From assembly GCA_965262985.1 (NCBI GenBank), contig OZ253576.1, positions 1,031,806-1,095,805 on the forward strand: a stretch of DNA of 64,000 nucleotides. The letters run 5' to 3'. Origin of the DNA: Vicinamibacterales bacterium (GTDB taxonomy: Bacteria > Acidobacteriota > Vicinamibacteria > Vicinamibacterales > UBA8438). The notes below the pieces were generated by a model. It made no database searches and was not told where the DNA came from. It was given only the letters and a program-made list of their open reading frames with translations. Below are positions 9,649 to 53,868 of the stretch, in pieces (position 1 is the stretch's first letter; each line of letters begins with the position of its first letter). Position numbers and translations under genes: made by a program.

Positions 9649-10884
9649 TCAACGGTCGCCGGACAGGCGGCTGGTTGACCGCAGGGCGCGGTGCGCGCTG
9701 GACGTGCGCCGCTGCTCCTGCAGACGGGCCAGGTCGTCCCGCCGTTGTTGCAGCAGCGCTCCCTCGCGTTTGAGCCCACGGTAGTGCTCGACCCGCCGCG
9801 TCGCCAGCGTGCCGCGTTCGGCCGCGGCGCGTACCGCGCAGCCCGGTTCCCGGTCGTGCCCGCAGTCGCGGAAGCGGCAGTCGGTCGCCAGGGTCTCGAT
9901 GTCGTCAAACGTCTCGTCCAGCGACTCGGCGCTGTCCCAGAGCTGCAGTTCGCGCATGCCGGGGGTGTCGATGAGCAATGCCCCGGCCGGCATGACGATG
10001 AGTTCTCGCTGTGTCGTGGTGTGACGTCCGCGGCCGTCGCGTGATCGGATGGCGCGGGTGCGCTGGCGGTCGGCGCCGAGCAGGCGGTTGATGATGGTCG
10101 ACTTGCCGACACCGGACGAGCCGAGCAGCGCGACCGTGCGGCCCGCTGCGAGGTGGGACTGCAGCGCATCGAGCCCGATGTTCCGCTGGCAACTGACGAG
10201 GTGAATCGGCACACCGGGCGCCGCCGCCGCGGTGGCGGCGCGGGCCGCCTCGGGATCGGGGCAGACGTCCGCCTTGTTCAGCACGATGACGGCCTCGGCG
10301 CCGCTCTCCCGAATGGCGACGAGGTAGCGCTCGATGCGCGGCACGTTGAAATCGTTATCGAGTCCGCACACCAGGAACACGGTGTCGATGTTGGCCGCCA
10401 CGATCTGCCGTCTGGTGGGTTCGCCCGCCGCCTTGCGGGAAAACGTGGTCCGGCGCGGCAGCACTGCTTCGATGGTGGCCTTCCGTTCCGTCAGACTCGG
10501 TCTCATCGCCACCCAGTCGCCCACCACCGGGATCGCGTCGGGGCTGCCGGACTGGTGGCGGTGGCGGCCCGACACCTCGGCCAGCACCTCGCCATCCACG
10601 CCCAGCAGTTGATACAGATAGTTGTGGGCCACGGTCACCCGGGCCGGGTGCAGGCCGTCGCGTGCATGCGGTTCGAACCGCTCGGCGAACCAGGCGTTCC
10701 AGCCAAGCGTTGCGAGATCGATCTGATCGGGGTCTTCTGCGGGCGTGCGATGTCGCGGAGGCGTCCGCGTGCGCCCGTTCCTGGCAGCTCGTGGCGAAAG
10801 CCCCGCTGCATTCGACCGGCCATGCGGTCGCAAATTTCCCAATTTGCTCCCTGTCCCGTCTGAACTGCGTTGCTCCTCGGTCAC
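9649..10884 (-). CDS. rsgA: Ribosome small subunit-dependent GTPase A (true start uncertain; upstream starts lie inside a repeat element)
   Basis: VGDWV, AANID, LNKAD, GSSGVGKST, GRHTTT, IDTPGMREL, CRFRDCGH.EPGC zinc motif. Confidence 0.93.
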   Translation of the reverse strand: MTEEQRSSDGTGSKLGNLRPHGRSNAAGLSPRAARNGRTRTPPRHRTPAEDPDQIDLATLGWNAWFAERFEPHARDGLHPARVTVAHNYLYQLLGVDGEVLAEVSGRHRHQSGSPDAIPVVGDWVAMRPSLTERKATIEAVLPRRTTFSRKAAGEPTRRQIVAANIDTVFLVCGLDNDFNVPRIERYLVAIRESGAEAVIVLNKADVCPDPEAARAATAAAAPGVPIHLVSCQRNIGLDALQSHLAAGRTVALLGSSGVGKSTIINRLLGADRQRTRAIRSRDGRGRHTTTQRELIVMPAGALLIDTPGMRELQLWDSAESLDETFDDIETLATDCRFRDCGHDREPGCAVRAAAERGTLATRRVEHYRGLKREGALLQQRRDDLARLQEQRRTSSAHRALRSTSRLSGDR

Positions 10885-10974
10885 AAATGCCCCAATTTGC
10901 TCCCTCGTCGCGCCTTGTCAGCCGGGCGCCTGACCGGTCTCGGTGCGACGCGGGGTTTCACCACGGACTGCTAG
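10781..10974. mobile_element. MITE-like modular repeat, copy A
   Basis: Imperfect terminal inverted repeats (ctggcagctcgtggcgaaagccccgc ... gcggggtttcaccacggactgctag). Internal module shared with the copy at 33229. Confidence 0.8.
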
Positions 10975-11214
10975 TCACTCGCGGGGTTCGCCGGTATGGC
11001 GCGTCACGCTCGTCACGCTGCCCATCAGAAACTGCAGCCTGACGCGGTCGCCCGGCTTGAGCCCGTGGTCGACCGCCTCGGGGCCCACCCGGGCCACGCG
11101 CACCTGGCCATCCGGATAGTCGGGGTCGCTGAAGGACAGGTCCCAGGAGATCTGACCGTGGATACTGATGGGCTGCACTTTCCGCAAGATGGCGGCGCGG
11201 CTGCCTTTGAGCAT
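10975..11214 (-). CDS. Small hypothetical protein (79 aa)
   Basis: GC3-biased codons. Fills the gap after dinB. TAAGAT -10-like box 6 nt before ATG. Confidence 0.7.
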   Translation of the reverse strand: MLKGSRAAILRKVQPISIHGQISWDLSFSDPDYPDGQVRVARVGPEAVDHGLKPGDRVRLQFLMGSVTSVTRHTGEPRE

Positions 11215-11258
11215 GCAGACATCTTACCTTACCGCAGAGGGTGTCCCCGTATCGGCCG

Positions 11259-12344
11259 TCACAGCGGCAACGTTGCGTTCGTGGGCTCGCCGCCGGTGTC
11301 ATCGTCCCCGCACAGGTTGTGCAGGCTGACGCCCAGCAGCCGCACCGGGCGGGCGCCGGCCTCCGTGCGGTCGAGCAGCCGTACGGCGCGGGCGGCGATA
11401 CGGTCCGCGTCGCGGGCGCCGAGCCGTTCGCTGTGACTGCGCGTCGTGGTCGTGAAATCCGAGTAGCGCACCTTCAGGGTCACCGTCCGGGCGCGCAACC
11501 GCTTGCGCGCCAGCCAGTCGGCGCCGCGTCGCGCCATGCGCTCCACCTCGGCGCGAATCGCGTCCAACTCGGTGAGATCGCGGGCGTACGTGTTCTCCGA
11601 CCCGCACGACTTGGCGGCGCGGTGCGGTGTCACCGGCCGGTCGTCGATCCCGTGCGCCAGGCGCCTCAGCCAGTCGGCTTGGTGGCCCACCGTATGTTTG
11701 AGCGCGCGAGGTTCGACAGTCCGGACGTCGACAAGTCGCGTGATGCCGGCCGCGCGGAGCCGTCTGGCGGTGACCGGACCGACGCCCCAGAGCGCCTCGA
11801 CCGGCAACTTCTGCAGGAACGCCTCCACACGCTGCGTCGGTATGACGGTGAGACCGTCCGGCTTGTCCCAATCGGACGCGATCTTGGCGAGAAACTTGTT
11901 GGGGGCGGCCCCGGCCGAGACCGTCAGCCGCGTTGCCTCCTTGATCTGCCGCTTGAGCCGTTTCGCCACGGTGGTGGCCAGCGGCTCGCCCCAGCGGTTC
12001 TCGGTGACGTCGAGATATGCCTCATCGAGCGACAGCGGCTCGACGAGCGGCGTGACCGCGCGATACATCTCGAACACGTCGGACGACACCTGCCGGTAGC
12101 GGCCGATATCCGGTTTGACGATGACCAGATCGGGACAGAGGCGGACCGCCTTGGCCATCGCCATGGCTGATCGCACCCCGAAGGCACGCGCTTCGTAACT
12201 GGCCGCCGCCACCACGCCGCGGCCCTCCGGACGGCCGCCCACGGCCACCGGTTTCCCGCGCAACGCCGGGTCGTCGCGTTGCTCGACCGAGGCATAGAAC
12301 GCATCCATGTCAAGGTGCAGAATGCGCCGGACGGGGGAGTCCAC
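11259..12344 (-). CDS. dinB: DNA polymerase IV
   Basis: ILHLDMDAFYASVE, SYEARAFGVRSAM, SLDEAYLD, AKIASDWDKPDG, little-finger RLLGV. Confidence 0.96.
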   Translation of the reverse strand: MDSPVRRILHLDMDAFYASVEQRDDPALRGKPVAVGGRPEGRGVVAAASYEARAFGVRSAMAMAKAVRLCPDLVIVKPDIGRYRQVSSDVFEMYRAVTPLVEPLSLDEAYLDVTENRWGEPLATTVAKRLKRQIKEATRLTVSAGAAPNKFLAKIASDWDKPDGLTVIPTQRVEAFLQKLPVEALWGVGPVTARRLRAAGITRLVDVRTVEPRALKHTVGHQADWLRRLAHGIDDRPVTPHRAAKSCGSENTYARDLTELDAIRAEVERMARRGADWLARKRLRARTVTLKVRYSDFTTTTRSHSERLGARDADRIAARAVRLLDRTEAGARPVRLLGVSLHNLCGDDDTGGEPTNATLPL

Positions 12345-12407
12345 GGCGACAGTCTACCGCCGTCGTTGTACTCCGGCAGTGGCGACGCACGCCGGCCAGT
12401 GGTGCCT

Positions 12408-12423
12408 GGGTACACCGTTTGCC
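12408..12423 (+). promoter_or_regulatory. Possible sigma-54 (-24/-12) promoter
   Basis: gGGTACaccgtTTGCc: GG-N10-GC spacing, close to the TGGCAC-N5-TTGC consensus. Confidence 0.35.
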
Positions 12424-12675
12424 TTTCCATGGTGTGCTCCCATACTCAATCTCTCCAGGAACACACTCTTACGTTCGCCCTGGTCCGGTGTACTGGGTGC
12501 GGAACAGCGGGTGGTCCCGATAGCGTATCGCGGGGGTGGGCGACGTGACGGCGTGGGCGGAAGACGATTGCACGGTCCATCTCACCCGTCCACCTGCGGA
12601 GTGCAGGTAAGGTAGGCTAACGGTTTGCCGGTGCGTCAGGTTGCCGGTGCGTCAGGCGCGGAAGGGCAGTTCCAG

Positions 12676-14493
12676 ATGGCGGACAACACACTGCAGAAGA
12701 AGAAAAAAGCGTTCGTGACAGCGGGGGCCTGGGTCGAGGCGAAGGCGCTCGTGCACCGCCACCGCTACCGGCTGATGCTCGGCATGGCGTTGATGCTCGT
12801 CAGCCGTCTGGCCGGCCTGGTGTTGCCCTGGATGTCGGGCTATGTCATCGACGACGTCATCGCGCCGGGGCGGACCGACCTGCTGGTGCCGCTGGCGCTC
12901 GTTGCGGCGGCCGCCACCCTGGTGCAGTCGAGCACCGGGTTCGCCCTGTCGCAGGTGCTGGGCGTGGCTGCGCAGCGTGCCATTACCGAGATGCGCAAGC
13001 GGGTGCAGCGGCATGTGACCCGCCTGCCGGTCAGCTACTTCGATTCGACCAAGACCGGCGTGTTGATCTCGCGGGTCATGACCGACGCCGAGGGCATTCG
13101 GAACCTCGTCGGGACCGGGCTGGCGCAACTGGTCGGGGGGGTCGTCACGGCCACCGTCGGGACCGGCGTGCTGTTCTATCTGAACTGGCGGTTGACCAGC
13201 GTGACCCTGGTGATCCTGATCGGCTTCGGCGTGGTCCTGGCGAAGGCGTTCTCGAGGCTGCGCCCGCTGTTTCGCGAGCGCGGCAAGATCAACGCCGAGG
13301 TGACCGGCCGGTTGGCCGAGACGCTGGGCGGTGTGCGCATCGTCAAGGCGTACAGCGTCGAGAAGCGTGAGCAACTGGTGTTCGCGCGCGGCGCCCACCG
13401 ACTGCTCCGCAACGTGGCGAAGACCGTCACCGGCGTGTCGGCGACGACGTCGGCGGCGTCGCTCGCGGTCGGCTTGATCGGCGCCTTGATCATCGTGATG
13501 GGGGGCCAGGCGATCATCTCCGGCGAGTGGACGGTCGGCTATCTGCTGCGCTATCTCATGTTCACCGCTGTTGTGGTGGCGCCGGTCGTCTCGATGGCGT
13601 CGATCGGCACACAGATCACCGAGGCGTTCGCCGGTCTCGATCGCATCCAGGAGATTCTCGGCACCCCGACCGAGATCGACGAAGACGCCGGGCGCGCCCC
13701 AATCGACGAGGTGCACGGCGACATCGAGCTCGAGCGGGTGACGTTTGCCTACACCGAGGGTGTGCCGGTGTTGCGGGACGTGTCGTTGACCGCTCCAGCC
13801 GGCGCCACCATCGCGCTGGTAGGGTCGAGCGGGTCCGGCAAGAGCACGCTGGTCAGCCTGGTCATGGCGTTCAACCGTCCACAGACCGGCCGGGTGCTGG
13901 TGGATGGCCGCGATCTGTCGACCATCAAGCTGGCCGACTTTCGTCGGCAACTGGGGGTCGTGCTGCAGGAGAACTTCCTGTTCGACGGGTCGATCGCGTC
14001 CAACATCAGCTTCGCGCGGCGTCACGCCACCCGCGCCGACATCGAGGCGGTGAGCCGTCTCGCCCACTGCGACGAGTTCATCCGCGGCTTTCCGGATGGC
14101 TACGACACGATCGTCGGCGAGCGGGGGGTCAAGCTGTCGGGCGGGCAGCGGCAGCGCGTCGCCATTGCGCGCGCGATTCTGGCCGACCCCCGCATTTTGA
14201 TTCTGGACGAGGCCACATCGAGCCTCGACAGCGAGAGCGAGGCGCTGATTCAGGACGGGTTGCGGGCGCTGCGCCGGGGGCGGACCACGTTCGTCATCGC
14301 CCACCGGCTGTCGACCATTCAGAGCTCCGATCAGATCGTCGTCATCGAGCACGGGCAGATCGTCGAGCGGGGCACGCACGCCGATCTGCTGGCGGCGGCG
14401 GGACGCTACCGCGAGCTGTACGACACCCAGTATCGTTTCGAGCAGGACCGCTTCATCAACCCCGGTGAGGACTTCACGCCGGAGCCCGAGTAG
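12676..14493 (+). CDS. ABC exporter, fused permease/ATP-binding (MsbA/MdlB-like)
   Basis: N-terminal TM helices, GSSGSGKST, LSGGQRQR, ILDEATS, IAHRLST. Confidence 0.93.
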   Translation: MADNTLQKKKKAFVTAGAWVEAKALVHRHRYRLMLGMALMLVSRLAGLVLPWMSGYVIDDVIAPGRTDLLVPLALVAAAATLVQSSTGFALSQVLGVAAQRAITEMRKRVQRHVTRLPVSYFDSTKTGVLISRVMTDAEGIRNLVGTGLAQLVGGVVTATVGTGVLFYLNWRLTSVTLVILIGFGVVLAKAFSRLRPLFRERGKINAEVTGRLAETLGGVRIVKAYSVEKREQLVFARGAHRLLRNVAKTVTGVSATTSAASLAVGLIGALIIVMGGQAIISGEWTVGYLLRYLMFTAVVVAPVVSMASIGTQITEAFAGLDRIQEILGTPTEIDEDAGRAPIDEVHGDIELERVTFAYTEGVPVLRDVSLTAPAGATIALVGSSGSGKSTLVSLVMAFNRPQTGRVLVDGRDLSTIKLADFRRQLGVVLQENFLFDGSIASNISFARRHATRADIEAVSRLAHCDEFIRGFPDGYDTIVGERGVKLSGGQRQRVAIARAILADPRILILDEATSSLDSESEALIQDGLRALRRGRTTFVIAHRLSTIQSSDQIVVIEHGQIVERGTHADLLAAAGRYRELYDTQYRFEQDRFINPGEDFTPEPE

Positions 14494-14533
14494 GTGGAAG
14501 TGTCGAGGTAGGACCGGATATTGTGAGAGGGGC

Positions 14534-14599
14534 GCAGCGTGAAACCGCAGAATTCTGCGGGGATCGAAGGCAGCGGGGCTTTCGCCACGGGCTGCCTGG
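14534..14599. mobile_element. MITE-like modular repeat, partial copy B (one terminus plus gcagaattc module)
   Basis: gcagcgtgaaaccgcagaattctgcggggatcgaaggcagcggggctttcgccacgggctgcc matches the end of copy F. Confidence 0.75.
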
Positions 14600-14696
14600 A
14601 CAGGCTATTCTGAGAGACGTGCAGCGCAAATGGCGCGGCGGGTGCCGGACGTCGCCAGTCGGCGGACGCGGCCGGCCGGTGCGATAGAGTACAGCC

Positions 14697-15419: not shown

Positions 15420-15526
15420 CCGTCCGATGGCCGGTGGGGTGTGACGCGGTCGAGACGGACATTCGTGGCGCGACGGGGCCGGCGGCGCGGGCCTCGGCCT
15501 GCGTCCGACCGCGGGAGATGAGTTGC

Positions 15527-17203
<1,677 letters not shown>

Positions 17204-17209
17204 CTGGCG

Positions 17210-19243
17210 CTACGCCGGAGACGCGTGCGTCGCGGGCCGTCCCAGGTGCATCACGATCGCGGCGATGAAGAGCGCGGCGCCGATGAGGTCGGTCATCGTC
17301 GTGGCGTAGAACAGCAGCAGTCCGCCGGCGACCGCAAGAGTTCGTTCCACCATGGTCGCTTCCTGCCGCAGCCAGCCGCCGAGTCCCATCGCGAGCGCCA
17401 GGACGCCGGCAATCGCCGTCGACACGGTCTTCAGGATGTCGCCGGCCGGCGCCTGCAACAGCACCCCCAGTCCTTCCGGGCTCAGCGTGAACGCGAACGG
17501 CACCAGGAACGCCGGCAGGGTGTACTTCCAGGTCAGCATCATCGTCTTGAACGGATTGGCGCCGGTGATCGCGGCCGCTGCGAACGGGGACAGGGCGGTC
17601 GGGGGACTGACCTCTGAAAGCACCGCGTAGTAGAAGATGAACATGTGCGCCGCCACCTCCGGCACACCCACGTTGGTGAGGGCGGGCGCGATCATGACGG
17701 CCGCGATGATGTAGGAGGCGGTCACCGGCACCGCCAGCCCGAGCATCCAGACGGCCAGCGCGGCGTAGACCACCGTGAGGAACAGGTTGCCGCCCGCGAG
17801 GTCAACGATGATGTTGGAGATCTTGAGCCCCAGCCCCGTCAGCGTCACCACGCCGACGATGACGCCCGCCGTGGCCGTGGTGGCCGCCACCGCCAGCACC
17901 GCCCGCCCGCCGGTCTCGAGCGCGGTCACCAGCCGCTTCGGTCGCAACGCCGTCTCGCGTCTGATGAAACTGAGCGCGATGGCCCCCATCGTGGCGTAGA
18001 AGACGGCGCGGAACGGGGTCATGCCCGAGACGAGGAGCACGACAAGCGCGATCAGCGGCAGAAAGTGATACCCCGAGCGGCGCGTCAATGCGCCGACGGA
18101 CGGCAGGTCGACGGCGACCGCTTTCGTGCCGAGCCGCCGCGCATCCGCCTCGATCATCAGCACGATCGACAGGTAATAGAGGACAGCCGGCACGATCGCC
18201 ATCGCGATCACCTGCAGGTAGCTGATCTGCAGGAACTCCACGATAATGAAGGCTGCGGCTCCCATGGTGGGCGGGGCCATGATGGCGCCGATGCCGCTGG
18301 CCGAGAGAATGCCGGCGCCCACCTCCGGCGTGAACCCGGCGCGGCGCAGCATCGGCCAGGCCACCGCGCCCAGCGTGACGGTGGTGGCGACGCCGCTGCC
18401 GGAGACGGTGCCGAGCAGGAACCCCGACATCGTGACGGTGCGTCCCGGGCCGGCGCCGCTCGCGGACCGTCCGAAGGCCGACATGGTCCAGGTGATGAAG
18501 AACTGCCCGGCGCCCGAGTGCTGCAGCATCGCGCCGAAGATGGTGAACAGCACGATGTAGGTGGCGGCCACGCGCAGCGGCACGCCGAAGATGCCTTCCA
18601 GGGTCATGTAGAGGGTGCCCATGAGACGCGCCAGCGAGTAGCCCCGGTGCGCGAAGATCTCGAGTCCCAGCAGTTCGAGATACGGGCCGTAGTAGCCATA
18701 CAGCAGGAAGACAACGGCGGTGATTGGCAGAATCCAGCCGACGGTGCGGCGGGTGGCCTCGAGGACGAGCAGGGTGGTGACGGCGCCGAAGGCGATGTCG
18801 AGCCCGCTCGGAGTCGCCGCGCGGCGCACGAAGTTGTCGAAATCGACAATCGGCCACAGCAGCACGAGAATCGAGACGCCGGCCAGCGCCCAGTCCAGGG
18901 CGGCCACCCGGCCCCGCCCCGAGGGCGCCGCCGGGTACAGCACGAACGTCAACACCAGGGCGACCAGCAGGAAGCTGACCCGGTAGATCTGGGGCTGCAC
19001 GATACCCACGACCCAGTACAGCGCATACAGGGACAGCCCGGCGGCCAGCACCGTGACAAGCCGGTGCGGGAATCCGGTCAGCCGCCGGGTCGGGACTTCG
19101 GCGTCCGGGTCGTCCAGGGCATCGGCCGGCGGGACAGGCAGGTTCTCCAGCGGTGGTCCTCGATTCGATACGGTCTCACGCGGTTGGCAGCCCGCGGCAC
19201 AAGCCCCGCTGCATGCGGATGGCGCGACGCGGAGTTTTACCAC
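17210..19243 (-). CDS. TRAP transporter fused 4TM/12TM permease (TAXI type); start may be near 19150
   Basis: Many TM helices, EGIFGVP, SGSGVAT, PPTMGAAAF, HMFIFYYAVLSEVSPP. Confidence 0.92.
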   Translation of the reverse strand: MVKLRVAPSACSGACAAGCQPRETVSNRGPPLENLPVPPADALDDPDAEVPTRRLTGFPHRLVTVLAAGLSLYALYWVVGIVQPQIYRVSFLLVALVLTFVLYPAAPSGRGRVAALDWALAGVSILVLLWPIVDFDNFVRRAATPSGLDIAFGAVTTLLVLEATRRTVGWILPITAVVFLLYGYYGPYLELLGLEIFAHRGYSLARLMGTLYMTLEGIFGVPLRVAATYIVLFTIFGAMLQHSGAGQFFITWTMSAFGRSASGAGPGRTVTMSGFLLGTVSGSGVATTVTLGAVAWPMLRRAGFTPEVGAGILSASGIGAIMAPPTMGAAAFIIVEFLQISYLQVIAMAIVPAVLYYLSIVLMIEADARRLGTKAVAVDLPSVGALTRRSGYHFLPLIALVVLLVSGMTPFRAVFYATMGAIALSFIRRETALRPKRLVTALETGGRAVLAVAATTATAGVIVGVVTLTGLGLKISNIIVDLAGGNLFLTVVYAALAVWMLGLAVPVTASYIIAAVMIAPALTNVGVPEVAAHMFIFYYAVLSEVSPPTALSPFAAAAITGANPFKTMMLTWKYTLPAFLVPFAFTLSPEGLGVLLQAPAGDILKTVSTAIAGVLALAMGLGGWLRQEATMVERTLAVAGGLLLFYATTMTDLIGAALFIAAIVMHLGRPATHASPA

Positions 19244-20416: not shown

Positions 20417-20483
20417 TGCAGCCCGTGGCAGAAGCCCCGCGGTATTCGACCGGCGCGGCGCCAGATTCAACCACGGGTTGCTA
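20417..20483. mobile_element. MITE-like modular repeat, minimal copy C (termini only)
   Basis: gcagcccgtggcagaagccccgc ... ttcaaccacgggttgcta inverted termini, no internal modules. Confidence 0.65.
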
Positions 20484-25906: not shown

Positions 25907-26094
25907 CTGGCAGTCCGTGGTGAAACCCCGCGTTGCACCGAGATTGGCGATGCGCCCGCTGCGCAAGGCGAGAAGAGGGAGCATACCTGTAGGGGCAACC
26001 CTTGTGGTTGCCCTGTTCGTCAGCCGGAGCAACGCCGTCAGTCGGGATGCAGCGCCGTTCGAATGCAGAGGGGCTTCTTGCCACGGGCTGCCAG
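25907..26094. mobile_element. MITE-like modular repeat, full copy D containing a GTAG REP
   Basis: ctggcagtccgtggtgaaa ... ttgccacgggctgccag termini. REP GTAG-GGGCAACC-cttgt-GGTTGCCC at 25989-26013. Confidence 0.85.
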
Positions 26095-31192: not shown

Positions 31193-32307
31193 TGGTCAAG
31201 CAGACCGTGTTTCCAGCAGTGCTCCGTCTCGTCTGGATCATCGGCCTGTGGCTTGCGGCGCCCGCCGCGCACGCAGGGCAGAGCGATTTCTGGTTCACGG
31301 CAGAGTTGGATGCCTACAGGGCGGTGGTGGAGGACTACCGCGCCCAGTCGGTGGAAGAGGTGATCGACCGGGTGCGGGCCTTCGAGCCTCGCGCGGTGCA
31401 CGAGCTGATCGATCGGGTTCGCGGCCCGGACCTCCGTCTCACCGGGACCGATGCCGAACCGGCGCTGAACGAACGGTTGTTCCGCTCGGCCGCGATGCTG
31501 CACATCGACATCGCGGAGCGCCTGTGGTGGCGGGGGCTCGAGAGCGCCGCCACCGATCAGATCGAGGTCGCGGTCCGCTGGGCCGATCTGAGCGCACGGC
31601 GGCCGGAGCCGCCCGGGTCGTTCCGGCGCCGGTGGTACCTGGCGGTGACCCTGCTGGCGTTCGAGCGCGGCGGTTGGCAGGCCGGGTTGGCGTTCGCGGA
31701 GCTGGCGTGCGACGCGCTGCCGGACGACGTACCGGTGCTGACCGCCGCCGCCTGGATGAACGAAGAACTGGCGCTGACTCCGTTCAACGTCGGCGTGAGC
31801 GGGGAGTCCGGACTGCGCCGGCGGCAGGAGGCGCAACGCACGCTGCTGGAGGCGGCGGCCGGTCTGGCCGGCAGGGCGCTGGCTGTCGCGCCACTGGCGG
31901 GGGAGGCGGCGCTGCGGCGGGCGCGGGTCGAGCTGCTGCTTGGCCGCGCGGACGACGCCCGGGAGCGTTTGCAGGGATTGATCGGCCGCCCCGATCTTTC
32001 GCGCCCGCATGCGTATCTGGCCCGGCTGCTGCTTGGGAGGATGTACGCGCGGGCGGATGACCCGGAGAACGCCGAGCGCCTGCTGCGAGAGGCGAGTGCG
32101 CTGTTGCCGGAGGGACAGGCGGCCCGTGTGGCGCTGAGCCGGCTGCTCGACACGCTGGGCGATCGACGCGCTGCGGCGGTCGTGCTCGAGCCGGTCCTCA
32201 GGGCCGAGGTGCCGGGGGGCGCGGCCGACCCCTGGGTGGCCTACCGGCTGGGGAGGAATCCGGGCCCGGCGCTGCGGGAGGCGCTGCGGGGCGAGGTGCG
32301 CCAATGA
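31192..32307 (+). CDS. Secreted TPR-like protein
   Basis: Signal peptide, helical repeats, DPWVAY C-terminal motif. TGATG coupling. Confidence 0.75.
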   Translation: MVKQTVFPAVLRLVWIIGLWLAAPAAHAGQSDFWFTAELDAYRAVVEDYRAQSVEEVIDRVRAFEPRAVHELIDRVRGPDLRLTGTDAEPALNERLFRSAAMLHIDIAERLWWRGLESAATDQIEVAVRWADLSARRPEPPGSFRRRWYLAVTLLAFERGGWQAGLAFAELACDALPDDVPVLTAAAWMNEELALTPFNVGVSGESGLRRRQEAQRTLLEAAAGLAGRALAVAPLAGEAALRRARVELLLGRADDARERLQGLIGRPDLSRPHAYLARLLLGRMYARADDPENAERLLREASALLPEGQAARVALSRLLDTLGDRRAAAVVLEPVLRAEVPGGAADPWVAYRLGRNPGPALREALRGEVRQ

Positions 32308-33230
32308 GGCGGCGTGCCCGGGGCTGCGCGTTGCTGGCGTGCCTGTTGGCCGGCGCCGGCGCCTCGGTGCACGCCCAGACCTTCCGCAGCGGCGTCGACG
32401 CCGTCGCGGTGGACGTGCTGGTCAGCGTGCGCGGGCGGCCGGTCAGCGGATTGACCGCGAGCGATTTCACCCTGCTCGACAACGACGTCCCGCAACCGGT
32501 CGAGGCGCTGCTGGTCGAGGACTTGCCGATCACGCTGCTGCTGGTGCTTGACACCAGCGGGAGCGTCGCTGGCGCGCCGCTCGAGCAATTGCGGGCAGCG
32601 GCCGAGGCGGCGGCCACGACGCTGCGCGCCGACGATCGCGTCGGTCTGGTCACCTTTTCCGACAAGCTGCGGATGGTCGTCGAGCCGCCGGCGCCGGTCA
32701 GCGACCTGCCCGCTGCACTGCGGCGGGTTCGCGCCGGCGGCGCCACCGCGCTCTACGACGCGGCGTTCGCGGCGTTCCTGCTGCGCGAGCAGACCGTGGG
32801 GCGGGTGCTGATGCTGGTCTTCAGCGACGGCGACGACACCGCGAGCTGGCTCGACCCGCGCGACGTCCTCGGCACCGCTCAACGCAGTGACGTGGTGGTC
32901 TATGGGGTGACGCTCGACAGGGCCCGCGGCGACGGGTGGGCCGACGGACCGACCGCCGCGTTCATCCGCCGCTGGTTTCCCGCCGCGCCGTATCTGCTGG
33001 GCCGGCACTTCCTGCCGCGTCTCGCGGAGGATACCGGCGGCTCGGTGTTCGTCGCCAACGAGATCGGCCGTCTGCGCGAGGCGTTCTCGCGGGTCATCAG
33101 CGAGTTTCGGAGCCGGTATCTGTTGACCTACTCGCCACAAGGGGTGGAGGCCGGCGGATGGCACGACCTGGAGGTGTCGGTGAGGGGGCGGGGGCGCCGG
33201 GTGCAGGCGCGTCGCGGCTACATGCGTTAG
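32304..33230 (+). CDS. VWA domain protein (Acidobacterial type)
   Basis: QTFRSGVDAV.VDV, DTSGS MIDAS, TALYDA, SDG.D, YLLTY.P, ARRGY. Confidence 0.9.
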   Translation: MRRRARGCALLACLLAGAGASVHAQTFRSGVDAVAVDVLVSVRGRPVSGLTASDFTLLDNDVPQPVEALLVEDLPITLLLVLDTSGSVAGAPLEQLRAAAEAAATTLRADDRVGLVTFSDKLRMVVEPPAPVSDLPAALRRVRAGGATALYDAAFAAFLLREQTVGRVLMLVFSDGDDTASWLDPRDVLGTAQRSDVVVYGVTLDRARGDGWADGPTAAFIRRWFPAAPYLLGRHFLPRLAEDTGGSVFVANEIGRLREAFSRVISEFRSRYLLTYSPQGVEAGGWHDLEVSVRGRGRRVQARRGYMR

Positions 33231-33425
33231 GAGCCCGTGGTGAAACCGCGCGCAGCACCGAGCGTGGCGAAGCGCCCGCATGGCAAGGCGAGATGTAGGG
33301 GCAACCCTTGTGGTTGCCCTGTTCGTCTGCCGAAACAACGCCGTCCAGGCGGGACAGGGAGCAAATTGGGAAATTTGCGACCGCATCGCCGCGCGAATGC
33401 CGCGGGGCTTTCACCACGGGCTCCT
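33229..33425. mobile_element. MITE-like modular repeat, full copy E
   Basis: Perfect 17-bp TIR aggagcccgtggtgaaa / tttcaccacgggctcct. REP at 33295-33319 plus the gggacagggagcaaattgggaaatttgcgaccgcat module. Confidence 0.88.
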
Positions 33426-35245: not shown

Positions 35246-36067
35246 TCAATGCGCGGGCGCGTAGGCGGCCGCGCGAACGGTCACGCCTGGACGCGCCACG
35301 GTGACCCGCGGTACGCCGCCGCCGGCATCCGCCGCGCGGAGCGACAGCAGATACTGCAGACCCAGTTCGCGGCCGATGCCCGCCAGCGCGTCGCTGAACT
35401 CCTCCGAGGCGGCGACGGTCTGAAAGTGCGCGCCGCTGCCGGCGGCGAGCTGCTCGAAGTTCGTCAGCGGGACGTCGGTCACTGCGATGCCGTAGAACAG
35501 GATGCCGTGCATCGCCAGCGACTCGGCCAGGTGATCGAGGCGGCCGCTCAGATCGGCCGCGCGCCGGCGGCCGCGCACCTGTGAGGACTGCAGGTCCGAC
35601 GGTGCGATCTCGCTGGCCTGGCCCAGCATCAGAATGATCGGTCGTGCGGCGCCGCGGGCATGGAGGTCGTCAATCGCTTCGATGATCGCTGCGTCGAGCT
35701 CGCCCTCGACACTTTGCATGTCGACGATGCTGTCGTCGTCGAGGCTGCCGATGAACACGGACAGGGCGGAGGACAGTTGGCGCTGAGTCACGGCGAGGCC
35801 TTCGAAGATGGCCACGACCTGTACGGCGGGCGGCGCCGGGTCGACCGACACGATCTCCAGCAGGTCACCCTCAACGCGCACGGTGAAATCGTCCGCCGTC
35901 AATCCGCTGACCGGTGTTCCACCGGTATCGGTCACCGACACCAGCAGCCTTTGGTGAACGTCCTGCGTCGCACCGAGGGCGGCGGGGCTGCGCGCTGGCA
36001 AGGCGAGCCAGACGGCCGCGAGGCCGATCAGGAGGGCGGCGCCGGAGCGCAGGGGTGAGCGTTGCAT
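35246..36067 (-). CDS. Secreted VWA-like hypothetical protein
   Basis: Signal peptide, VSVTD..G.PVSGLTADDF.V, QYLLS, VTVARPGVTVRA. Confidence 0.75.
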   Translation of the reverse strand: MQRSPLRSGAALLIGLAAVWLALPARSPAALGATQDVHQRLLVSVTDTGGTPVSGLTADDFTVRVEGDLLEIVSVDPAPPAVQVVAIFEGLAVTQRQLSSALSVFIGSLDDDSIVDMQSVEGELDAAIIEAIDDLHARGAARPIILMLGQASEIAPSDLQSSQVRGRRRAADLSGRLDHLAESLAMHGILFYGIAVTDVPLTNFEQLAAGSGAHFQTVAASEEFSDALAGIGRELGLQYLLSLRAADAGGGVPRVTVARPGVTVRAAAYAPAH

Positions 36068-40486: not shown

Positions 40487-40497
40487 TGTCGGAGAGA

Positions 40498-44667: not shown

Positions 44668-44717
44668 GGTGAAATCCGGGCGCCTGCCCGCCGCACGTGT
44701 CGCGGCGGTTATCGCAG

Positions 44718-48541: not shown

Positions 48542-48656
48542 CGACCTGCCTTCCTCGTGGTCTGCCCGCTACATACACTTCAAGACACGATAGTGTGGAC
48601 CCAAGGGCGCGTCGTTGTCAATCGTGGTCCCGTGCGGTAGGATGACGTTCTGAGAA

Positions 48657-48944
48657 GTAGGGGCAACCCTTGTGGTTGCCCTGTTCGTCTGCCGGAACAA
48701 CGCAGATCGGCAGGTTTCGGCATGAAACCGCAGAATTCCGCGGGGAAGCGCAGAATTCCGTAGGGGCAACCCTTGTGGTTGCCCTGTTCGTCTGCCGGAA
48801 CAACGCACATCAGCGGGATGCAACGTCGATCCGCAGATGTGCACGCGGATCGGCGGGTTTCAGCGTGAAACAGCAGAATTCCGCGGGGAAGCGCAGAATT
48901 CAGCGGGGATCGAATGCAGCGGGGCTTTCGCCACGGGCTGCCAA
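48657..48944. mobile_element. MITE-like modular repeat, copy F (two REP modules plus right terminus)
   Basis: REPs at 48657-48681 and 48760-48784, repeated gcagaattc modules, ends gcggggctttcgccacgggctgcc. Confidence 0.85.
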
Positions 48945-48957
48945 GGAGAACGTGTCG

Positions 48958-50544
48958 ATGTCAGTGTCCCGAAGCGGCTGGTTCATCCTGCTGGCGGCCT
49001 GCGTCCTGCTGGCGGGTAGCGCCCTGCCCGACGCCGCGGCGGCAGAAGATGCGCCGCTGATCGCGGCCGTCAAGGCAGAGGACGCCGGCGCGGTCAGCGC
49101 GCTGCTGGACGGCGGCGCCGACGTGAACGCAACGCAACCGGATGGGGCGACGGCGCTGCACTGGGCGGCGTTTCGGGATCACCACGAGATTGCGAGTCGG
49201 CTGATCGCGGCCGGTGCGGATGTCAACGCCGCCAACGAGTTGGGGGCGACGGCGCTGTGGCTGGCCGCGGACAACGGCAGCGCGACGATGGTGGAGCGCC
49301 TGCTTGCCGCCGGCGCCCGTCCCGACAGGGCGCTGCCGGAAGGAGAGACACCCGTCATGACGGCGTCCCGCACGGGGAACGCCGATGCGGTGACCCTGCT
49401 GGTCGCGGCCGGCGCCGACGTCAACGTGGCGGAGGACACCCGCGGGCAGACCGCCCTCATGTGGGCCGTGGCCCAGGGGCATCATGCGGTCGTGGCGGCG
49501 CTGATCGAGCACGGCGCCGATGTCGCCGCGAGGTCCAGGCTGCGGTCGCGCCTGATGCATGCCGACGCCACGAACGCGTCGCAGTACGACCAGGGCGTCA
49601 CGTGGCACCGGGGCGGCTTCACCCCGCTGCTCTTCGCGGCGCGGCACGGCGACATCGAGTCGGCGCGGCTGCTGCTGGCGGCCGGCGCCGATGTGGACGA
49701 CCCCGCTCCGACCGGCGCGACTCCGCTCGTGCTGGCCGCACACAGCGGCCATGGCGAGTTCGGCGCCTTTCTGCTTGACGCCGGGGCTGACCCCAACGCC
49801 ATCGGCGCGGGCTACAACGCGCTGCACGCCGCCACGCTGCGCGGGGACGAGCGGCTGGTCGAAGCGTTGCTGAGACATGGCGCCGACCCGGACGCGCGTC
49901 TCGAGTCCGGCACGCCGCTGCGGCGCACGAGCCAGGACTGGGCCTTGAATCCGTCGCTGGTGAGCGCGACGCCCTACTGGCTGGCCGCCTATTTTCGCGA
50001 GCCGAACATCATGCGCGACCTGGTGGCGGCCGGCGCCGACCCGCGCTTGACGACGCTCGAACGGTGGCGGCCGGTCGCCGAGCGTGCCGGCGGCGTCGGG
50101 CCGCCGCACCCCGCCAACGGGTTCATTCCGGCGCTGGTCGCGGCCCTGCGCGGTCCCGCCGACAGGGGGCGTTTCTTCAACACCGCGGCGCGCGACCCCG
50201 ACGGTGAGGAGCGCAAGGCCCTGGAGACGGTGCGCGTCGCTGTCGAGCACGGCGCCGACGTCAACGGCACCGCCGAGGATGGCGGCGCGGCGATACATAC
50301 GGCCGCCCAGCGCAACTTTGCGAGCGTCGTGAGCCTGCTGGCCGAGCACGGCGCCGACATCGATCTGAAGAACGGCTCTGGACGGTCTCCGCTGCAGATC
50401 GCTGCCGGGGCGGAAGCGGGGCGGGCCCGCAGTGCTGCAGCGGCAGAGCGCGCCCCCGCCGGCAACTCCGCCGAGGTGCTGCGTGAACTCGGCGCGATCG
50501 AAGAGACGGACGAGACAGCGGACGAGGCCGACGCGGCCCGCTGA
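48958..50544 (+). CDS. Secreted ankyrin-repeat protein
   Basis: Signal peptide and many G.T(A/P)L..AA..G....LL..GADVN repeats. AAGGAG RBS. Confidence 0.92.
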   Translation: MSVSRSGWFILLAACVLLAGSALPDAAAAEDAPLIAAVKAEDAGAVSALLDGGADVNATQPDGATALHWAAFRDHHEIASRLIAAGADVNAANELGATALWLAADNGSATMVERLLAAGARPDRALPEGETPVMTASRTGNADAVTLLVAAGADVNVAEDTRGQTALMWAVAQGHHAVVAALIEHGADVAARSRLRSRLMHADATNASQYDQGVTWHRGGFTPLLFAARHGDIESARLLLAAGADVDDPAPTGATPLVLAAHSGHGEFGAFLLDAGADPNAIGAGYNALHAATLRGDERLVEALLRHGADPDARLESGTPLRRTSQDWALNPSLVSATPYWLAAYFREPNIMRDLVAAGADPRLTTLERWRPVAERAGGVGPPHPANGFIPALVAALRGPADRGRFFNTAARDPDGEERKALETVRVAVEHGADVNGTAEDGGAAIHTAAQRNFASVVSLLAEHGADIDLKNGSGRSPLQIAAGAEAGRARSAAAAERAPAGNSAEVLRELGAIEETDETADEADAAR

Positions 50545-50606
50545 GACCGGCGGCCGGCAGACCGCGCGCGACACTACCGCCGCGTCCGGTTCACCACCTC
50601 CATGTG

Positions 50607-51956
50607 ATGCGAACAGCGGCCATCGGCACCATCGTGGCGGCCTCGCTGCTGATACCGGCGGCAGCCGTGGCGCAGCCGGGGCAATGGGCCCGCTTCCGGG
50701 GTCCGGATGCCGGCGCCGCAGCGGACGATCCGCGCCTGCCGGAAACCTGGAGCGAGACCGAAAATGTCGTGTGGGCCGCCGATATCCCCGGCCTGGGTTG
50801 GAGTTCGCCGGTCGTCTGGGACGATCACGTCTTTCTGACGACCGCGGTCAGTGCGGGCACAGAGCGGGCTCCGGTGCGCGGGCTCTACGACCCGGGGTCC
50901 ACCAGCGGCGCCACCCGTTCGACCGCACCGCATCGCTGGTTCGTCTACGACCTGGACTTCGATACCGGCGCCGTGCGCTGGGTGCGCGAGCTGCAGTCCG
51001 CGGTCCCGCAGATTGAGCGGCACCTGAAGAACAGCTTCGCGTCAGAGACTCCGGTCACCGACGGAGAACGGCTCTACGTCTATTTCGGGACGATCGGCCT
51101 GGTGGCGGCGCTGGACCTGGACGGCGAGGTGCTCTGGCGGCGCGAGCTCGGGGTGTTCAACGGCCGCCAGCGATTCGGCACCGCGGCCTCGCCGGCGCTG
51201 CATGACGGCCGGTTGTATGTCGTCAACGACAACACCACGCAGTCGTTTCTTGTGGCGCTCGATTCCGCGACCGGGGCAGAGGTGTGGCGCGTTGAGCGGG
51301 ACGAAGTCGAGAACTGGGCCACGCCGTTCGTCTGGGAGAACGATCTGCGCACGGAGATCGTCACCGCCGGGTTGCGGCGGGTGCGGTCGTATGACCTCGA
51401 TGGCCGGCTGCTGTGGGAGCTGGGCGGGATGACGGTGAACGTGGTGCCGACACCGTTCGCCAGGGACGGGCTGGTGTATATCAGCTCCGGGTACCCCGGC
51501 GGCCTGCCCAGACCGGTCTACGCGATCCGGCCGGGCGCGTCGGGCGACATTTCACTGAGAGAGGGCGAGAACGCCAACGATTTCATCGTCTGGTATCAGC
51601 CGATGCTGGGCACATACAACACGTCGGCGCTGGTCTACGACGGGCACTACTACACGCTGCTCGACCGCGGCTTCCTGCTGAACCATGACGCCCGCACGGG
51701 ACGCGAGATCTACGGCCGGACACGCATCAAGCCGGGCTCGGGGTTCACGGCCTCTCCGTGGGCCTACAACGACCGCATCTTCCTGCTGGGCGAGGATGGC
51801 GACACCTTCGTCGTGCGCGCCGGGCCCGAGTTCGAGCTGCTCGGCACGAACTCGCTCAACGAGATGGCGCTGGCGACGCCGGCGGTCGTGCGCGGGAGTC
51901 TGATCCTGCGCACGCAGTCGAAGCTGTATCGCATCAGCAACGACCCCGGCTTGTAA
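50607..51956 (+). CDS. PQQ-binding-like beta-propeller protein
   Basis: Signal peptide, WARFRGP, WSETENVVW, GWSSPVVW, ASETPVTDG, ATPA...LRT. Confidence 0.88.
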   Translation: MRTAAIGTIVAASLLIPAAAVAQPGQWARFRGPDAGAAADDPRLPETWSETENVVWAADIPGLGWSSPVVWDDHVFLTTAVSAGTERAPVRGLYDPGSTSGATRSTAPHRWFVYDLDFDTGAVRWVRELQSAVPQIERHLKNSFASETPVTDGERLYVYFGTIGLVAALDLDGEVLWRRELGVFNGRQRFGTAASPALHDGRLYVVNDNTTQSFLVALDSATGAEVWRVERDEVENWATPFVWENDLRTEIVTAGLRRVRSYDLDGRLLWELGGMTVNVVPTPFARDGLVYISSGYPGGLPRPVYAIRPGASGDISLREGENANDFIVWYQPMLGTYNTSALVYDGHYYTLLDRGFLLNHDARTGREIYGRTRIKPGSGFTASPWAYNDRIFLLGEDGDTFVVRAGPEFELLGTNSLNEMALATPAVVRGSLILRTQSKLYRISNDPGL

Positions 51957-51976
51957 TCGGCGGTCGTCCCTCAACG

Positions 51977-52101
51977 CTGGCAGCCCGTGAAGAAACCGCG
52001 CGTTGCACCGAGATCGGCGATGTGCACGGTGAGCAAGGCGAGAAGAGTAGGGGCAACCCTTGTGGTTGCCCTGTTCGTCTGCCGGAACAACGCACATCAG
52101 C
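51977..52101. mobile_element. MITE-like modular repeat, copy G (left terminus plus REP)
   Basis: ctggcagcccgtgaagaaaccgcgcgttgcaccgagatc start. REP at 52047-52071. Confidence 0.85.
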
Positions 52102-52392
52102 ATGAAGATCCGCCGGATGTCGTGCCGCACGGCGACGATCAACGAGATCCGCCCGCTCGCGACCAGGCGGCCCATCTTCACCCACCTCGCGCTGCGCGCC
52201 GCGTCGATCGCGGCCCACGCGCTGGACCACACGCCCACGATGCGCGCGGTCCTGTGCGCCGACGGCTCTCCGCTGCCGCCTCAGGCCGCGGCCCGCCTCG
52301 TCGGGAGCGCCGCCGCCTGGACCCGTAACGTCATCCTGGCCCGAGCGCGTGAGAACGCCGCGGGAAAATCCGCGGACAGCGGTTCGAGATAG
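52102..52392 (+). pseudogene. Probable gene remnant (unknown family) abutting repeat G
   Basis: Strong GC3 frame (TINEIRPLATRRPIFTHLALRAASI...) beginning at the repeat edge. Confidence 0.35.
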
Positions 52393-52486
52393 GAGCGGGC
52401 GCCGGCGCGCGCCGCCGGGGCTCGATCGGTCGGCGACTTGTGGACAGACCCTTGTCTTGATGTGACTGGTCATGTAGTCTGGTCAC

Positions 52487-52726
52487 ATGGAAACGATCAA
52501 CGCTTCGGACTTCAAGGCGCGGTGTCTGGCGATTCTCGACCGCGTGCAGGCCACGGGTGAACGCGTTCTCATCCTGAAGCGGGGTCGGCCCGTTGCGGAG
52601 TTGTCGCCCGCAACACGAACCGGGGCCGAATACCCCCAGATGGAGCTCAAGGGGACGGTCACCGTGGTCGGCGACATCGTCGGACCGGTGGTTCCGGAAG
52701 ACGACTGGGAGAGCCTGCGCCGATGA
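52487..52726 (+). CDS. Phd/YefM-family antitoxin
   Basis: INASDFKARCLAILDRV..TGE.V.I.KRGRPVA. TTGTCT-N17-TAGTCT promoter directly upstream. Confidence 0.92.
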   Translation: METINASDFKARCLAILDRVQATGERVLILKRGRPVAELSPATRTGAEYPQMELKGTVTVVGDIVGPVVPEDDWESLRR

Positions 52727-53121
52727 AGGCGTTGCTCGACACGCATGTGCTGGTGTGGTGGATCGATGCCCTCCATCGGCTTTCGACCGCGCAGCGCGAG
52801 GTCGTGGCCTCGGCCGACGCCGAGTCACCCTTGCTGGTGTCCGACATCTCGCTCTGGGAGGTGGCGATGTTGCAGAGCCTGGGACGGATCCGCCTGGGGA
52901 TTCCGCTGCGAGACTGGCTCGACAAGGCGGTCGCGCCGCCGCTCGTGCGGCGCTGCGGCATCTCTCCGGCGATTGCGGCGGAAGTCGCCGGATTCCCCGA
53001 TTCGTTCCAGCGCGATCCGGCGGACCGAATCCTGGTCGCTACCTCCCGGGTGCTCGGCGCGACGCTGCTGACACGGGATCGGCGAATCGTCGACGCGGCG
53101 CTGACGGAGACGTTGAGTTGA
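52723..53121 (+). CDS. vapC: VapC PIN-domain toxin
   Basis: LLDTHVLVW, SDISLWE, DPADRILVAT, LLTRD. ATGA coupling. Confidence 0.92.
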   Translation: MKALLDTHVLVWWIDALHRLSTAQREVVASADAESPLLVSDISLWEVAMLQSLGRIRLGIPLRDWLDKAVAPPLVRRCGISPAIAAEVAGFPDSFQRDPADRILVATSRVLGATLLTRDRRIVDAALTETLS

Positions 53122-53285
53122 ACGCATGCTGTAGCCGCCGTGTGCCCGCGGTCGGCGAAGGTGCGATTCGACGTGACGCAACCCGACGATAGACGATATG
53201 TGAACCCCCTCGACGCGACCCCTGAGCCCCAGGACAGGCGGATCGGCCGGCATCATCGAGATGCTGGCGGACTTTGAGCGCGGGC

Positions 53286-53868
53286 GTGATCTTCGTGGAC
53301 TCCAATGCCCCGATGTATCTAGTCGGGATCCTCTCCGGAACCGGGATCTCATCGAAGCGTTCCCTGGCAGCCCGTGGTAAAAGCCCTGCTGCATTCAATC
53401 GGCGCAGAATTCTGCGCTTACCCGTGGAATTCTGCGGCTTCACGCTGCATCCCGCTGATCTGCGTTGCTCCGGCTGACGAACAGGGCAACCACAAGGGTT
53501 GCCCCTACAGGTATTTTCCCTCTTCTCGCCTTGCTCAGCGGGCGCATCGCCGATCTCGGTGCAACGCAGGGTTCTACCACGGGCCTGGACGTCATGCCTG
53601 TGCGGACCAGGATACGAATGCGGAGGATTATCAGGAGATCATTCATCGCTACGTCTCGATCGAGAGCGGCGACGCGAACGTCGATGCGTTTCGGTTGCTG
53701 GACGACCTGGTGGTCTCCGAGTTTCCGATCACCCGCGACGATGTCGATACGACACGGCGAATCTCCGCTGAGCAGCATGCGCTGTCGGCGCGTGATTGGC
53801 TGCACCTGGCCGTTATGGAGCGGCGAGGCGTGGATGTCACGCTTCGTACGACCGGGAATTCGCATTGA
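53286..53868 (+). pseudogene. VapC-like PIN toxin interrupted by repeat H
   Basis: MIFVDSNAPMYLVG before the repeat, QEIIHRY...LSARD.LHLAVMERRG after it. Antitoxin-like EMLADFERG scrap upstream. Confidence 0.75.
53364..53588. mobile_element. MITE-like modular repeat, full copy H (inverted relative to D)
   Basis: ctggcagcccgtggtaaaagcc ... gggttctaccacgggc termini. REP on the minus strand at 53484-53508. Confidence 0.85.

Follow-up and report, generated by a model that had tools for sequence, protein, structure and literature searches.

Repetitive extragenic palindromes (REPs) and their REP-associated tyrosine transposases (RAYTs) have been described, in outline, as REP–RAYT or REPIN–RAYT systems, REPINs being inverted REP doublets (Nunvar et al. 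2010, PMC2817692, whose abstract also names the bacterial interspersed mosaic elements, BIMEs; Bertels and Rainey 2011, PMC3116915), and the structure of a RAYT with a REP hairpin is summarized under 4ER8 (PMC3479197). Miniature transposable elements with inverted repeats (MITEs) derived from insertion sequences (ISs), REP–RAYT pairs and tandem REP clusters are already known as separate layers, and REPs and MITEs are treated as distinct classes of non-coding mobile DNA in bacteria, each with its own transposase. Mosaic intergenic repeats are represented by the enterobacterial BIMEs and the pneumococcal BOX elements, which consist of few motifs in a set order with a variable number of internal units; BIMEs have alternating REP orientation and are not known to have terminal inverted repeats (TIRs) or target duplication, and BOX elements are not known to have a RAYT-type REP. 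Here we describe a 64-kb stretch of a Vicinamibacterales genome (the window, G000:C1:1031806-1095805; genome G000 is one contig of 6.43 Mb with 66.8% G+C) in which one class is nested in the other: a GTAG-tagged REP lies in the core of a short MITE that shares its ends with a DDE-type IS, and the genes of the two partner enzymes are found together in this one complete genome.

Anatomy of the family and position of the REP

An earlier reading made from the sequence alone had listed eight related elements in the window. All eight were present, together with a ninth remnant recovered by a repeat scan and the genome-wide module search. The terminal pattern GCAGCCCGTGGYGAAA (at most two mismatches) matched the window 11 times, against 0.24 matches expected from shuffles, and the REP, GTAGGGGCAACC-N5-GGTTGCCC with the loop CTTGT, matched six times, against none expected; all six matches were exact, as the sequence-only reading had stated. 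The shared termini attributed to the whole group were read directly at both ends of elements A, C, D, E and H, and this part of the claim did not extend to the one-ended copies, of which B and F have only the E1-type end and G only the E2-type end. Past their first 16 nt the two arms diverge (E1, CAGCCCGTGGCGAAAGCCCCGCTGCATTCGA; E2, CAGYCCGTGGTGAAACCCCGCGTTGCACCGAGAT...GCAAGGCGAGA). The copies and their REPs are located as follows, in window coordinates:

10785..10970, minus strand: element A, a complete plain MITE with a double core (two core hairpins) and without REP; flanks CTGG / CTAG
14534..14594, plus strand: element B, a one-ended remnant with one 20-nt X (gcagaattc) unit and the E1 arm
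19187..19214, minus strand: ninth copy, a solo E1 end
20419..20480, minus strand: element C, a 62-bp mini form with both ends and a deleted interior; flanks CATG / CTAT
25911..26090, plus strand: element D, with E2 arm, left core half, REP and E1 arm; flanks CTGG / CCAG
25989..26013, plus strand: REP in D, GTAG followed by an 8-bp stem with the CTTGT loop
33231..33423, plus strand: element E, with E2 arm, REP, plain core and E1 arm on a subfamily-1 shell; flanks TTAG / CTTG
33295..33319, plus strand: REP in E
48657..48940, plus strand: element F, one-ended, a tandemly duplicated 103-nt REP+X block followed by the E1 arm (R X R X E1)
48657..48681, plus strand: first REP in F
48760..48784, plus strand: second REP in F
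51981..52101 (end approximate), plus strand: element G, with E2 arm and REP; E1 side truncated
52047..52071, plus strand: REP in G
53368..53586 (right boundary ± ~2 nt), minus strand: element H, with E1 arm, two X units, REP and E2 arm
53484..53508, minus strand: REP in H

Element E is inserted on the TAG stop codon of the open reading frame (ORF) at 32304-33230. Positions 35962-36007 match the inner E2 arm (GCACCGAG...GGCAAGGCGAG) weakly (72-75%) and may be a tenth, decayed remnant.

Genome-wide module maps, as the sequence-only reading had proposed, were made by using five window modules as blastn-short queries (E < 0.05), which yielded 1100 matches in G000; the family occupies ~396 loci in the 6.43-Mb genome, with one predominant module order. 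The commonest architecture was the bare E1–E2 form, found at 87 loci and mostly 153-160 bp long. Alignment of these 87 plain copies gave a clean single consensus with a central hairpin and CTAG on either side, the basic element consisting of an E2 arm, the central hairpin and an E1 arm. The stems of the core hairpin vary in paired fashion among sub-lineages (GCAAAT/ATTTG, GCATAT/ATATG and AATAC/GTATT). Three of the four modules previously regarded as discrete turned out to be parts of this shell and not independent units: the gggagcaaattggg... module is the core hairpin native to the plain MITE, gcaaggcgaga is the inner part of the E2 arm, and gcagaattc is a 20-nt minisatellite (X; GCAGAATTCAGCGGGGAANN) that is close to the sub-terminal E1 sequence CGAATGCAGCGGGGCT and is confined almost wholly to the E1-arm side. 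The proposed shuffling of modules was not borne out either. The order E2–REP(n)–core/X(n)–E1 was kept in 242 of the 267 loci with at least two module types, and no clear case of permutation was found among these loci; the 25 exceptions comprised tandem REP+X duplications (as in element F), adjacent independent elements and a split match caused by an E2-arm insertion variant. Further optional pieces likewise have constant positions, namely a second hairpin that follows the core and, within the E2 arm, a segment that replaces the usual sequence.

Comparison of plain and REP-bearing copies of the same shell lineage revealed how the REP sits inside the MITE. The plain core reads ...GAGAAGAGGGAAAATACC-GGCAGTATTTGACCGATGAACAACG..., and the REP-bearing core reads ...GAGAAGAGGGAAAATACC-T-REP-TGTTCGTCAGCCGGAACAACG...; the left core half-stem is retained, and the loop and right half are replaced by a ~47-nt block that starts with the 25-nt REP. 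The native right half-stem is never retained in REP-bearing copies, and at a single position the plain core and the REP core stand in for each other. The REP and the E2 arm pointed the same way in 189 of 195 cases and opposite ways in 6, and the right junction was constant (TGTTC in 171 of 293). The 3′ flank of the MITE-borne hairpin resembles the flank of the REPs adjacent to the RAYT-like gene described below (TGTTCGGTCCGCGG versus TGTTCGTCAGCCGG). The dinucleotide preceding GTAG was considered as a possible cleavage signal and discarded as uninformative: CT was found in 142 of 293 cases, but the count is dominated by the MITE junction ACCT (99).

Across G000 we found 273 exact copies of the 25-nt REP, and GTAG preceded the hairpin in 273 of 281 palindrome occurrences (562 matches, counted once per strand). 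The copies belong to a hairpin family in which GTAG and the CTTGT loop are conserved and the stems differ by paired changes (AACC/GGTT, 261; GCCC/GGGC, 22; ACCC/GGGT, 5; AGCC/GGCT, 2). The REP pattern was present in 5 of 151 genomes of the order and reached hundreds of copies only in G000 (295) and in its congener and sister species, G058 (248). Loci bearing shell arms accounted for 205 of the 306 REP matches in G000. The other 39 loci (101 REP matches) gave no arm match; at least 11 of them, judged by eye, retain decayed shell sequence, and the remaining arm-less loci are free REPs with other flanks, some arranged as inverted pairs. Inverted REP pairs are few (for example, at 3077947 and around the RAYT-like gene), most copies being singlets or direct arrays.

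Partner transposases

Identical flanking 4-mers were found at 89 of 221 paired elements genome-wide (67 of them CTAG/CTAG), compared with 2 of 221 for control 4-mers taken four bases outward, which upholds the CTAG-like flanking tetramers of the sequence-only reading. Direct, non-palindromic flanks were also seen (CTAT..CTAT, CTAA..CTAA and CTAC..CTAC), indicating a 4-bp target duplication and not a TA duplication, and a CTAG target accounts for landing on TAG stop codons. By searching G000 for MITE ends spaced 0.6-4 kb apart, we recovered the autonomous IS that had been predicted to carry the same TIRs: 15 copies, none of them within the window, of a 1465/1466-bp IS with MITE-type ends (CAGCCCGTGG...). 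The IS ends are CAGCCCGTGGCAGAAGGGGC and CAGCCCGTGGTGAAAGTCCC, and those of the MITE are CAGCCCGTGGCGAAAGCCCC and CAGCCCGTGGTGAAACCCCG. Identical 4-bp flanks were present at 13 of the 15 IS copies, three of them non-palindromic (GTAG, CTAT and TTAG). Mobilization of the IS630/TA type was rejected, since MITE and IS copies alike have direct non-palindromic flanks that agree with a 4-bp duplication. The IS carries an ORF of 456 amino acids that matched DUF772 (64.4 bits) and DDE_Tnp_1 (28.1 bits), each above the Pfam cut-off, and scored 85.6 bits against the NCBIfam model IS5_4 (cut-off 140). The shell is a 153-160 bp MITE that shares its ends and the 4-bp CTAG-type duplication with a 1465-bp IS1182-like DDE IS, and the earlier attribution to DDE (IS5/IS1182-type) mobilization agrees with this.

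The partner of the REP was less apparent. Scanning with PF01797 (Y1_Tnp) gave no match in G000; in the 151-genome sample of the order 103 genomes were positive, with neither G000 nor G058 among them. The reading of the REP as an orphan, taken from this blank, was rejected as a false negative, since tblastn with the RAYT frames of relatives produced a match at G000:164443-164634, in the densest REP cluster of the genome, and NF047646 (REP-associated tyrosine transposase) found one locus in G000 and one in G058. The gene is:

G000:C1:164026-164652, 867 kb upstream of the window: P0001, RAYT-like gene, single copy

The P0001 ORF encodes 208 amino acids (199 in the database call) and contains the motifs MPNHLHG and RQYILDNP; its match to NF047646 has an E value of 8.9e-15. 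Among its 5937 database relatives, several are named "REP element-mobilizing transposase RayT" by their source. An alignment of 30 sequences shows no variation at residues H97, H99 and Y193. An AlphaFold model of P0001 (mean predicted local distance difference test score, 71.6) gave as its top Foldseek match 4er8_A (E 1.8e-5), the RAYT from E. coli in complex with a REP hairpin, followed by IS200/IS605 transposases, and the 4er8_A residue aligned with Y193 is the tyrosine of 'DYIYINP'. P0001 carries an extra insertion of ~45 residues.

The genomic context points in the same direction. Exact copies of the window REP flank P0001 on the gene strand, 15 nt upstream and 37 nt downstream, and around them lie arrays of sister REPs in the opposite orientation. 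The G058 orthologue is likewise a single-copy, REP-flanked gene (83% identity), so that the claim of a RAYT-type REP finds a single-copy HUH/Tyr gene flanked by the exact REP in both species. Homologues of P0001 in two other families of the order, in G028 (40% identity) and G026 (42%, truncated), also adjoin REPs of the P0001 REP family. Taken together, the motifs, predicted fold, REP context and co-occurrence suggest that the GTAG palindrome is the cognate REP of a divergent RAYT-like enzyme. GTAG REPs with RAYTs are common in the order, as at the PF01797-found loci of G026, G148 and G028; these loci were themselves rejected as partners of the present REP, being flanked by other GTAG hairpins. 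The clade of P0001 is invisible to Pfam Y1_Tnp at usual thresholds, the tally of 103 in 151 genomes probably under-counts RAYTs, and surveys that call REPs "orphan" on the basis of PF01797 can err.

Two side observations concern this gene and its homologues. Beside P0001, at G000:C1 ~163.1-164.8 kb (L003:200-640, 1800-1930), there are half-REP arrays, a 20-nt minisatellite made of the REP 3′ half and flank (CGCGGTTGCCCTGTCCGGTC). At G028:C21 (L011:1721-1745), the stretch that aligns with the RAYT homologue contains, at the position of the extra segment of P0001, a REP of the family, which may be either an insertion in the gene or an alignment effect.

Insertion history, arrays and the origin of the nested element

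We compared 12 loci with one genome of the sister species, G058. Element E is absent from G058, where the empty site reads gcgCTAGcgcc and G000 has TTAG and CTTG on the two sides of the element. Copies carrying 15 and 11 REPs also face empty sites, CTAG and CTAC, respectively. These empty and filled pairs, the comparison that the sequence-only reading had suggested, show that REP-bearing copies inserted as whole MITEs since the split from the sister species; whole-MITE transposition is documented in this way for three copies. Elements A and G are orthologous in both species (A being near-identical in G058), which implies that REP capture predates the species split. In G058 the GTAG of element G reads GCAG, beside a 5-nt indel. 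Changes in place are seen at further sites: the orthologue of remnant B has no X unit, the solo end at 19187 corresponds to a longer element in G058, and the G058 counterpart of C is longer and carries a different deletion. The site of element F holds 46 unrelated nucleotides in G058, and element H lies within a ~1-kb segment that is missing at the orthologous site.

Several of these comparisons brought up details of their own. The element with 13 REPs (G000:C1:5176293-5176841) has lost its E2 arm and begins CTAG-CAG-GGGCAACC..., as if a deletion had joined the CAG of its terminal repeat to the TAG of GTAG; in G058, CTAG and CTAT at this site are separated by just 15 nt, which may be a footprint or what a near-complete deletion left behind. 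Where G000 has element D (window 25907-26094), G058 has 188 nt of different sequence ending in an E2-type end of opposite orientation; it seems that this CTAG site was either rearranged or used independently. Window segments 53240-54260, which holds H, and 54540-54909 have no counterpart at the orthologous G058 site; a 54-nt direct repeat (53207-53260 and 54260-54313; 78% identical) marks the two borders of the former, and its piece at ~53882-54252 is 98% identical to another G058 locus. Apart from the repeats treated here, the window contains at 49086-50365 a 44-nt motif that occurs six times at multiples of 99 nt inside the ORF 48670-50544 and looks like 33-residue protein repeats ending ...GADVNA, possibly of ankyrin type.

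The REP and its shell differ sharply in variability. Among 34 single-REP copies, nucleotide diversity was 0.002 in the 25-nt REP and 0.17 elsewhere, in keeping with the earlier description of an invariant REP within drifting termini; it was ~0.03 over 25 nt including the REP 3′ flank and 0.12-0.25 in other parts. Plain copies had an even diversity of 0.07-0.2 along their length, with no trough, and shell divergence was 0.165 for REP-bearing and 0.18 for REP-free copies. The REP is thus apparently younger, or more constrained, than the shell. The master REP is also identical in both species, with flanking DNA 87-97% identical and RAYTs 83% identical. Such invariance might reflect purifying selection by the host on hairpins that serve as transcription terminators, mRNA stabilizers or protein-binding sites, the RAYT link being incidental to the MITE-borne copies. 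Roles of this kind have been hypothesized for REPs in literature abstracts, the elements are intergenic, and E lies exactly on a stop codon. We nevertheless regard a host-selected structure as quite improbable: the CTAG target explains the stop-codon position, the REP number per array varies from 1 to ~15 without pattern, and MITE-borne copies have no bias of orientation relative to replication (64 versus 55).

The REP core is not tied to one type of shell. It was found on both shell subfamilies (44 and 3 copies by E2 type), on all three E2b variants (37, 6 and 4), and both with X (41) and without X (9). Plain cores are spread in the same way over arm and X variants, and almost every combination of core, arm and minisatellite variants is represented, so that the sequence-only reading was right that modules combine differently from copy to copy. 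The nearest-neighbour shell predicted the presence of X in 93% of cases and that of the REP in 79%, against a shuffle maximum of 73% for the latter.

REPs are further multiplied within single copies. We identified 58 same-strand REP arrays, 50 of which have a uniform period (31-103 nt), with up to ~15 REPs per array; units of 31, 34, 42 and 45 nt recur at several loci. The periodic region ends no more than 10 nt past the hairpin in 41 of the 50 uniform arrays, and the left extent of the period ranges from 0 to 57 nt. The claim that REP modules are amplified or swapped independently is upheld by these tandem arrays, and a role of the RAYT in making them, as opposed to slippage or recombination, found no support. 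Two other uses of the arrays were abandoned. An exact array start at GTAG (30 of 58 by strict match) was dropped as evidence for RAYT cleavage, being partly a single-mismatch artefact under tolerant extension, and a CRISPR-like reading was rejected in that the spacers within one array are the same sequence.

These features also bear on the idea that all copies descend by deletion from one long parental element, with no independent behaviour of modules. The fixed order in 242 of 267 loci is what this idea predicts, and C, B, G and the solo end at 19187 are indeed internal deletions or one-ended wrecks. As a general account it is nonetheless hardly credible, because the plain core and the REP block alternate at the same position, the commonest form is the short plain one (87 loci), arrays of up to 15 REPs with periods of 31-103 nt exceed any single parent, and a RAYT is associated with the REP. 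Of the scenario that the sequence-only reading had set against its own, the absence of reordering holds; an association with a RAYT was found and the copies are not simple deletion derivatives.

Starting from the observed anatomy, the two partner genes, the fixed order, the reassortment, the tandem arrays and the insertion polymorphism of REP-bearing copies, we consider it likely that this is one MITE family with a shell moved by a DDE transposase, a single REP capture, passenger spread of the REP, recombination onto older shells and local tandem expansion. In the first tier, the shell would be mobilized in trans by the transposase of the 1465-bp IS1182-like IS. In the second, the right half of the central hairpin in one lineage would have been replaced by the ~47-nt REP block, a capture in the MITE core that probably happened once, as the right junction and the orientation are constant. 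The REP would then have spread mainly as a passenger of DDE-driven MITE transposition. Because arm and half-stem variants are shared between REP-bearing and plain copies, the young REP block may also have been transferred to older, diverged shells by recombination or gene conversion among the ~400 copies; as the longest invariant stretch common to the copies, it would serve as a crossover patch. The REP with a few to tens of flanking bases and, separately, the 20-nt X unit would expand and contract as tandem arrays, most probably by replication slippage or unequal exchange. On this account the two-tier, non-autonomous element proposed from the sequence alone was largely right, but an action of the RAYT inside the MITE is conjectural.

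Several points weigh against this interpretation. The left REP junctions vary (ACCT, GAGAT, GACCT, GCCC and GAGAA), and three left half-stem variants, matching three plain-core lineages, adjoin the REP; repeated insertion at one site could also place the REP next to three half-stem variants, and single capture is a parsimony argument. For the REP and the ~20 nt that follow it, invariance could stem from selection or from renewal dependent on the RAYT, and not from youth combined with recombination. The left extension is 0 in 21 of 50 arrays, where the spacer is discontinuous with the local upstream flank, so that not all arrays were made in situ or their left sides were exchanged later, and simple in-situ duplication alone is insufficient for the arrays with left extension 0. 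The module maps used five queries at one E-value threshold and under-count diverged copies and further optional modules. The enzymes, too, match their families below curated thresholds: the best NCBIfam model for the IS transposase is IS1182 at 162.9 bits, under the 270 cut-off, and P0001 scores 54.8 bits against 80 for NF047646 and 16 against 23 for PF01797, for which reason we call the gene RAYT-like.

Some of these points would follow if the RAYT repeatedly inserted or re-copied the REP block into resident MITE cores, the MITE being its preferred target, and if arrays arose by cleavage beside the hairpin and rejoining. The genome has one intact copy of a RAYT-like gene whose HUH and Tyr residues are invariant, the REP is near-invariant (0.002) on shells ~16% apart, and it adjoins the three left half-stem variants of the plain-core lineages. 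In 41 of 50 arrays the breakpoints lie on the 3′ side of the hairpin at a distance of at most 10 nt, and free REP loci favour one replication strand (27 versus 12, compared with 64 versus 55 for MITE-borne loci; a weak bias, with origin and terminus placed roughly by GC skew). We hold such homing to be unlikely. The right junction, including ~20 nt of non-REP sequence, is constant in nearly all MITE-borne copies, and together with the consistent loss of the native right half-stem this fits a single capture better; REP-bearing copies arrive as whole MITEs with 4-bp duplications; and tandem reiteration of REP and flank is common in other bacteria with no proven RAYT role, to go by the available text of PMC3733652. 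Single capture followed by passenger spread is therefore preferred.

A further reading, which we put forward tentatively and rate as possible but on balance doubtful, is that a REP–RAYT system colonized an unrelated DDE MITE and came to depend on it, with the RAYT or REP-guided conversion keeping the REP identical and seeding the arrays. If so, most REP copies would have been made by the IS1182-like transposase and not by the RAYT, and the shells would drift by ~16% as the REP block stays identical. There would then be three layers (the host, the MITE with its IS, and the REP with its RAYT), two non-autonomous elements would evolve jointly, and the REP would be a recombination hotspot through which the halves of MITEs are reshuffled.

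Relation to known systems

A full-text literature search of open-access papers and preprints, which is weak evidence of novelty, found no RAYT-type REP nested in the core of a DDE-type MITE and no REP propagation mostly by a foreign transposase. With its empty sites, shared sites and arrays elsewhere, the sister species makes the pair of genomes a natural setting in which to ask whether REPs can maintain a population by hitch-hiking on a different element, what preserves their identity as the surrounding DNA decays, and how REP arrays become longer.

As far as REP–RAYT systems are outlined in the papers cited at the outset, the present system resembles them in several respects: the palindrome is short, GC-rich, tagged with GTAG on its 5′ side and repeated hundreds of times; its HUH/Tyr transposase gene is single-copy and lies between REPs of its own kind; REP and gene co-occur vertically in sister species; and sister REP variants keep the loop while their stems change in a compensatory way. 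It is unlike them in that about two-thirds of the REP matches lie inside a DDE-type MITE in one fixed orientation. In contrast to REPIN doublets, the REPs here are mostly singlets or direct tandem arrays and not inverted pairs, and unlike typical RAYTs P0001 has a ~45-residue insertion and falls under the Pfam and NCBIfam cut-offs. The tandem reiteration described for the GTAG-tagged REP super-family (Di Nocera et al. 2013, PMC3733652, in the portions available) resembles the arrays here; in the same portions MITEs are treated as a separate repeat class, whereas here the REP lies inside a MITE.

On the side of the shell, the family is like MITEs of the IS5-superfamily/IS1182 type in having TIRs in common with a ~1.46 kb IS, a 4-bp CTAG-type duplication, frequent landing on TAG stop codons and a central hairpin, and it goes beyond a plain IS-derived MITE in its REP-substituted core, its minisatellites and its reassortment. 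Like BIMEs and BOX elements, it is a mosaic of few motifs in a set order with a variable number of internal units. Unlike in BIMEs, the REPs in the shell are direct and do not alternate (189 in the same and 6 in the opposite orientation to E2), and unlike both BIMEs and BOX elements, the present mosaic has IS-type ends on both sides and is moved as a whole.

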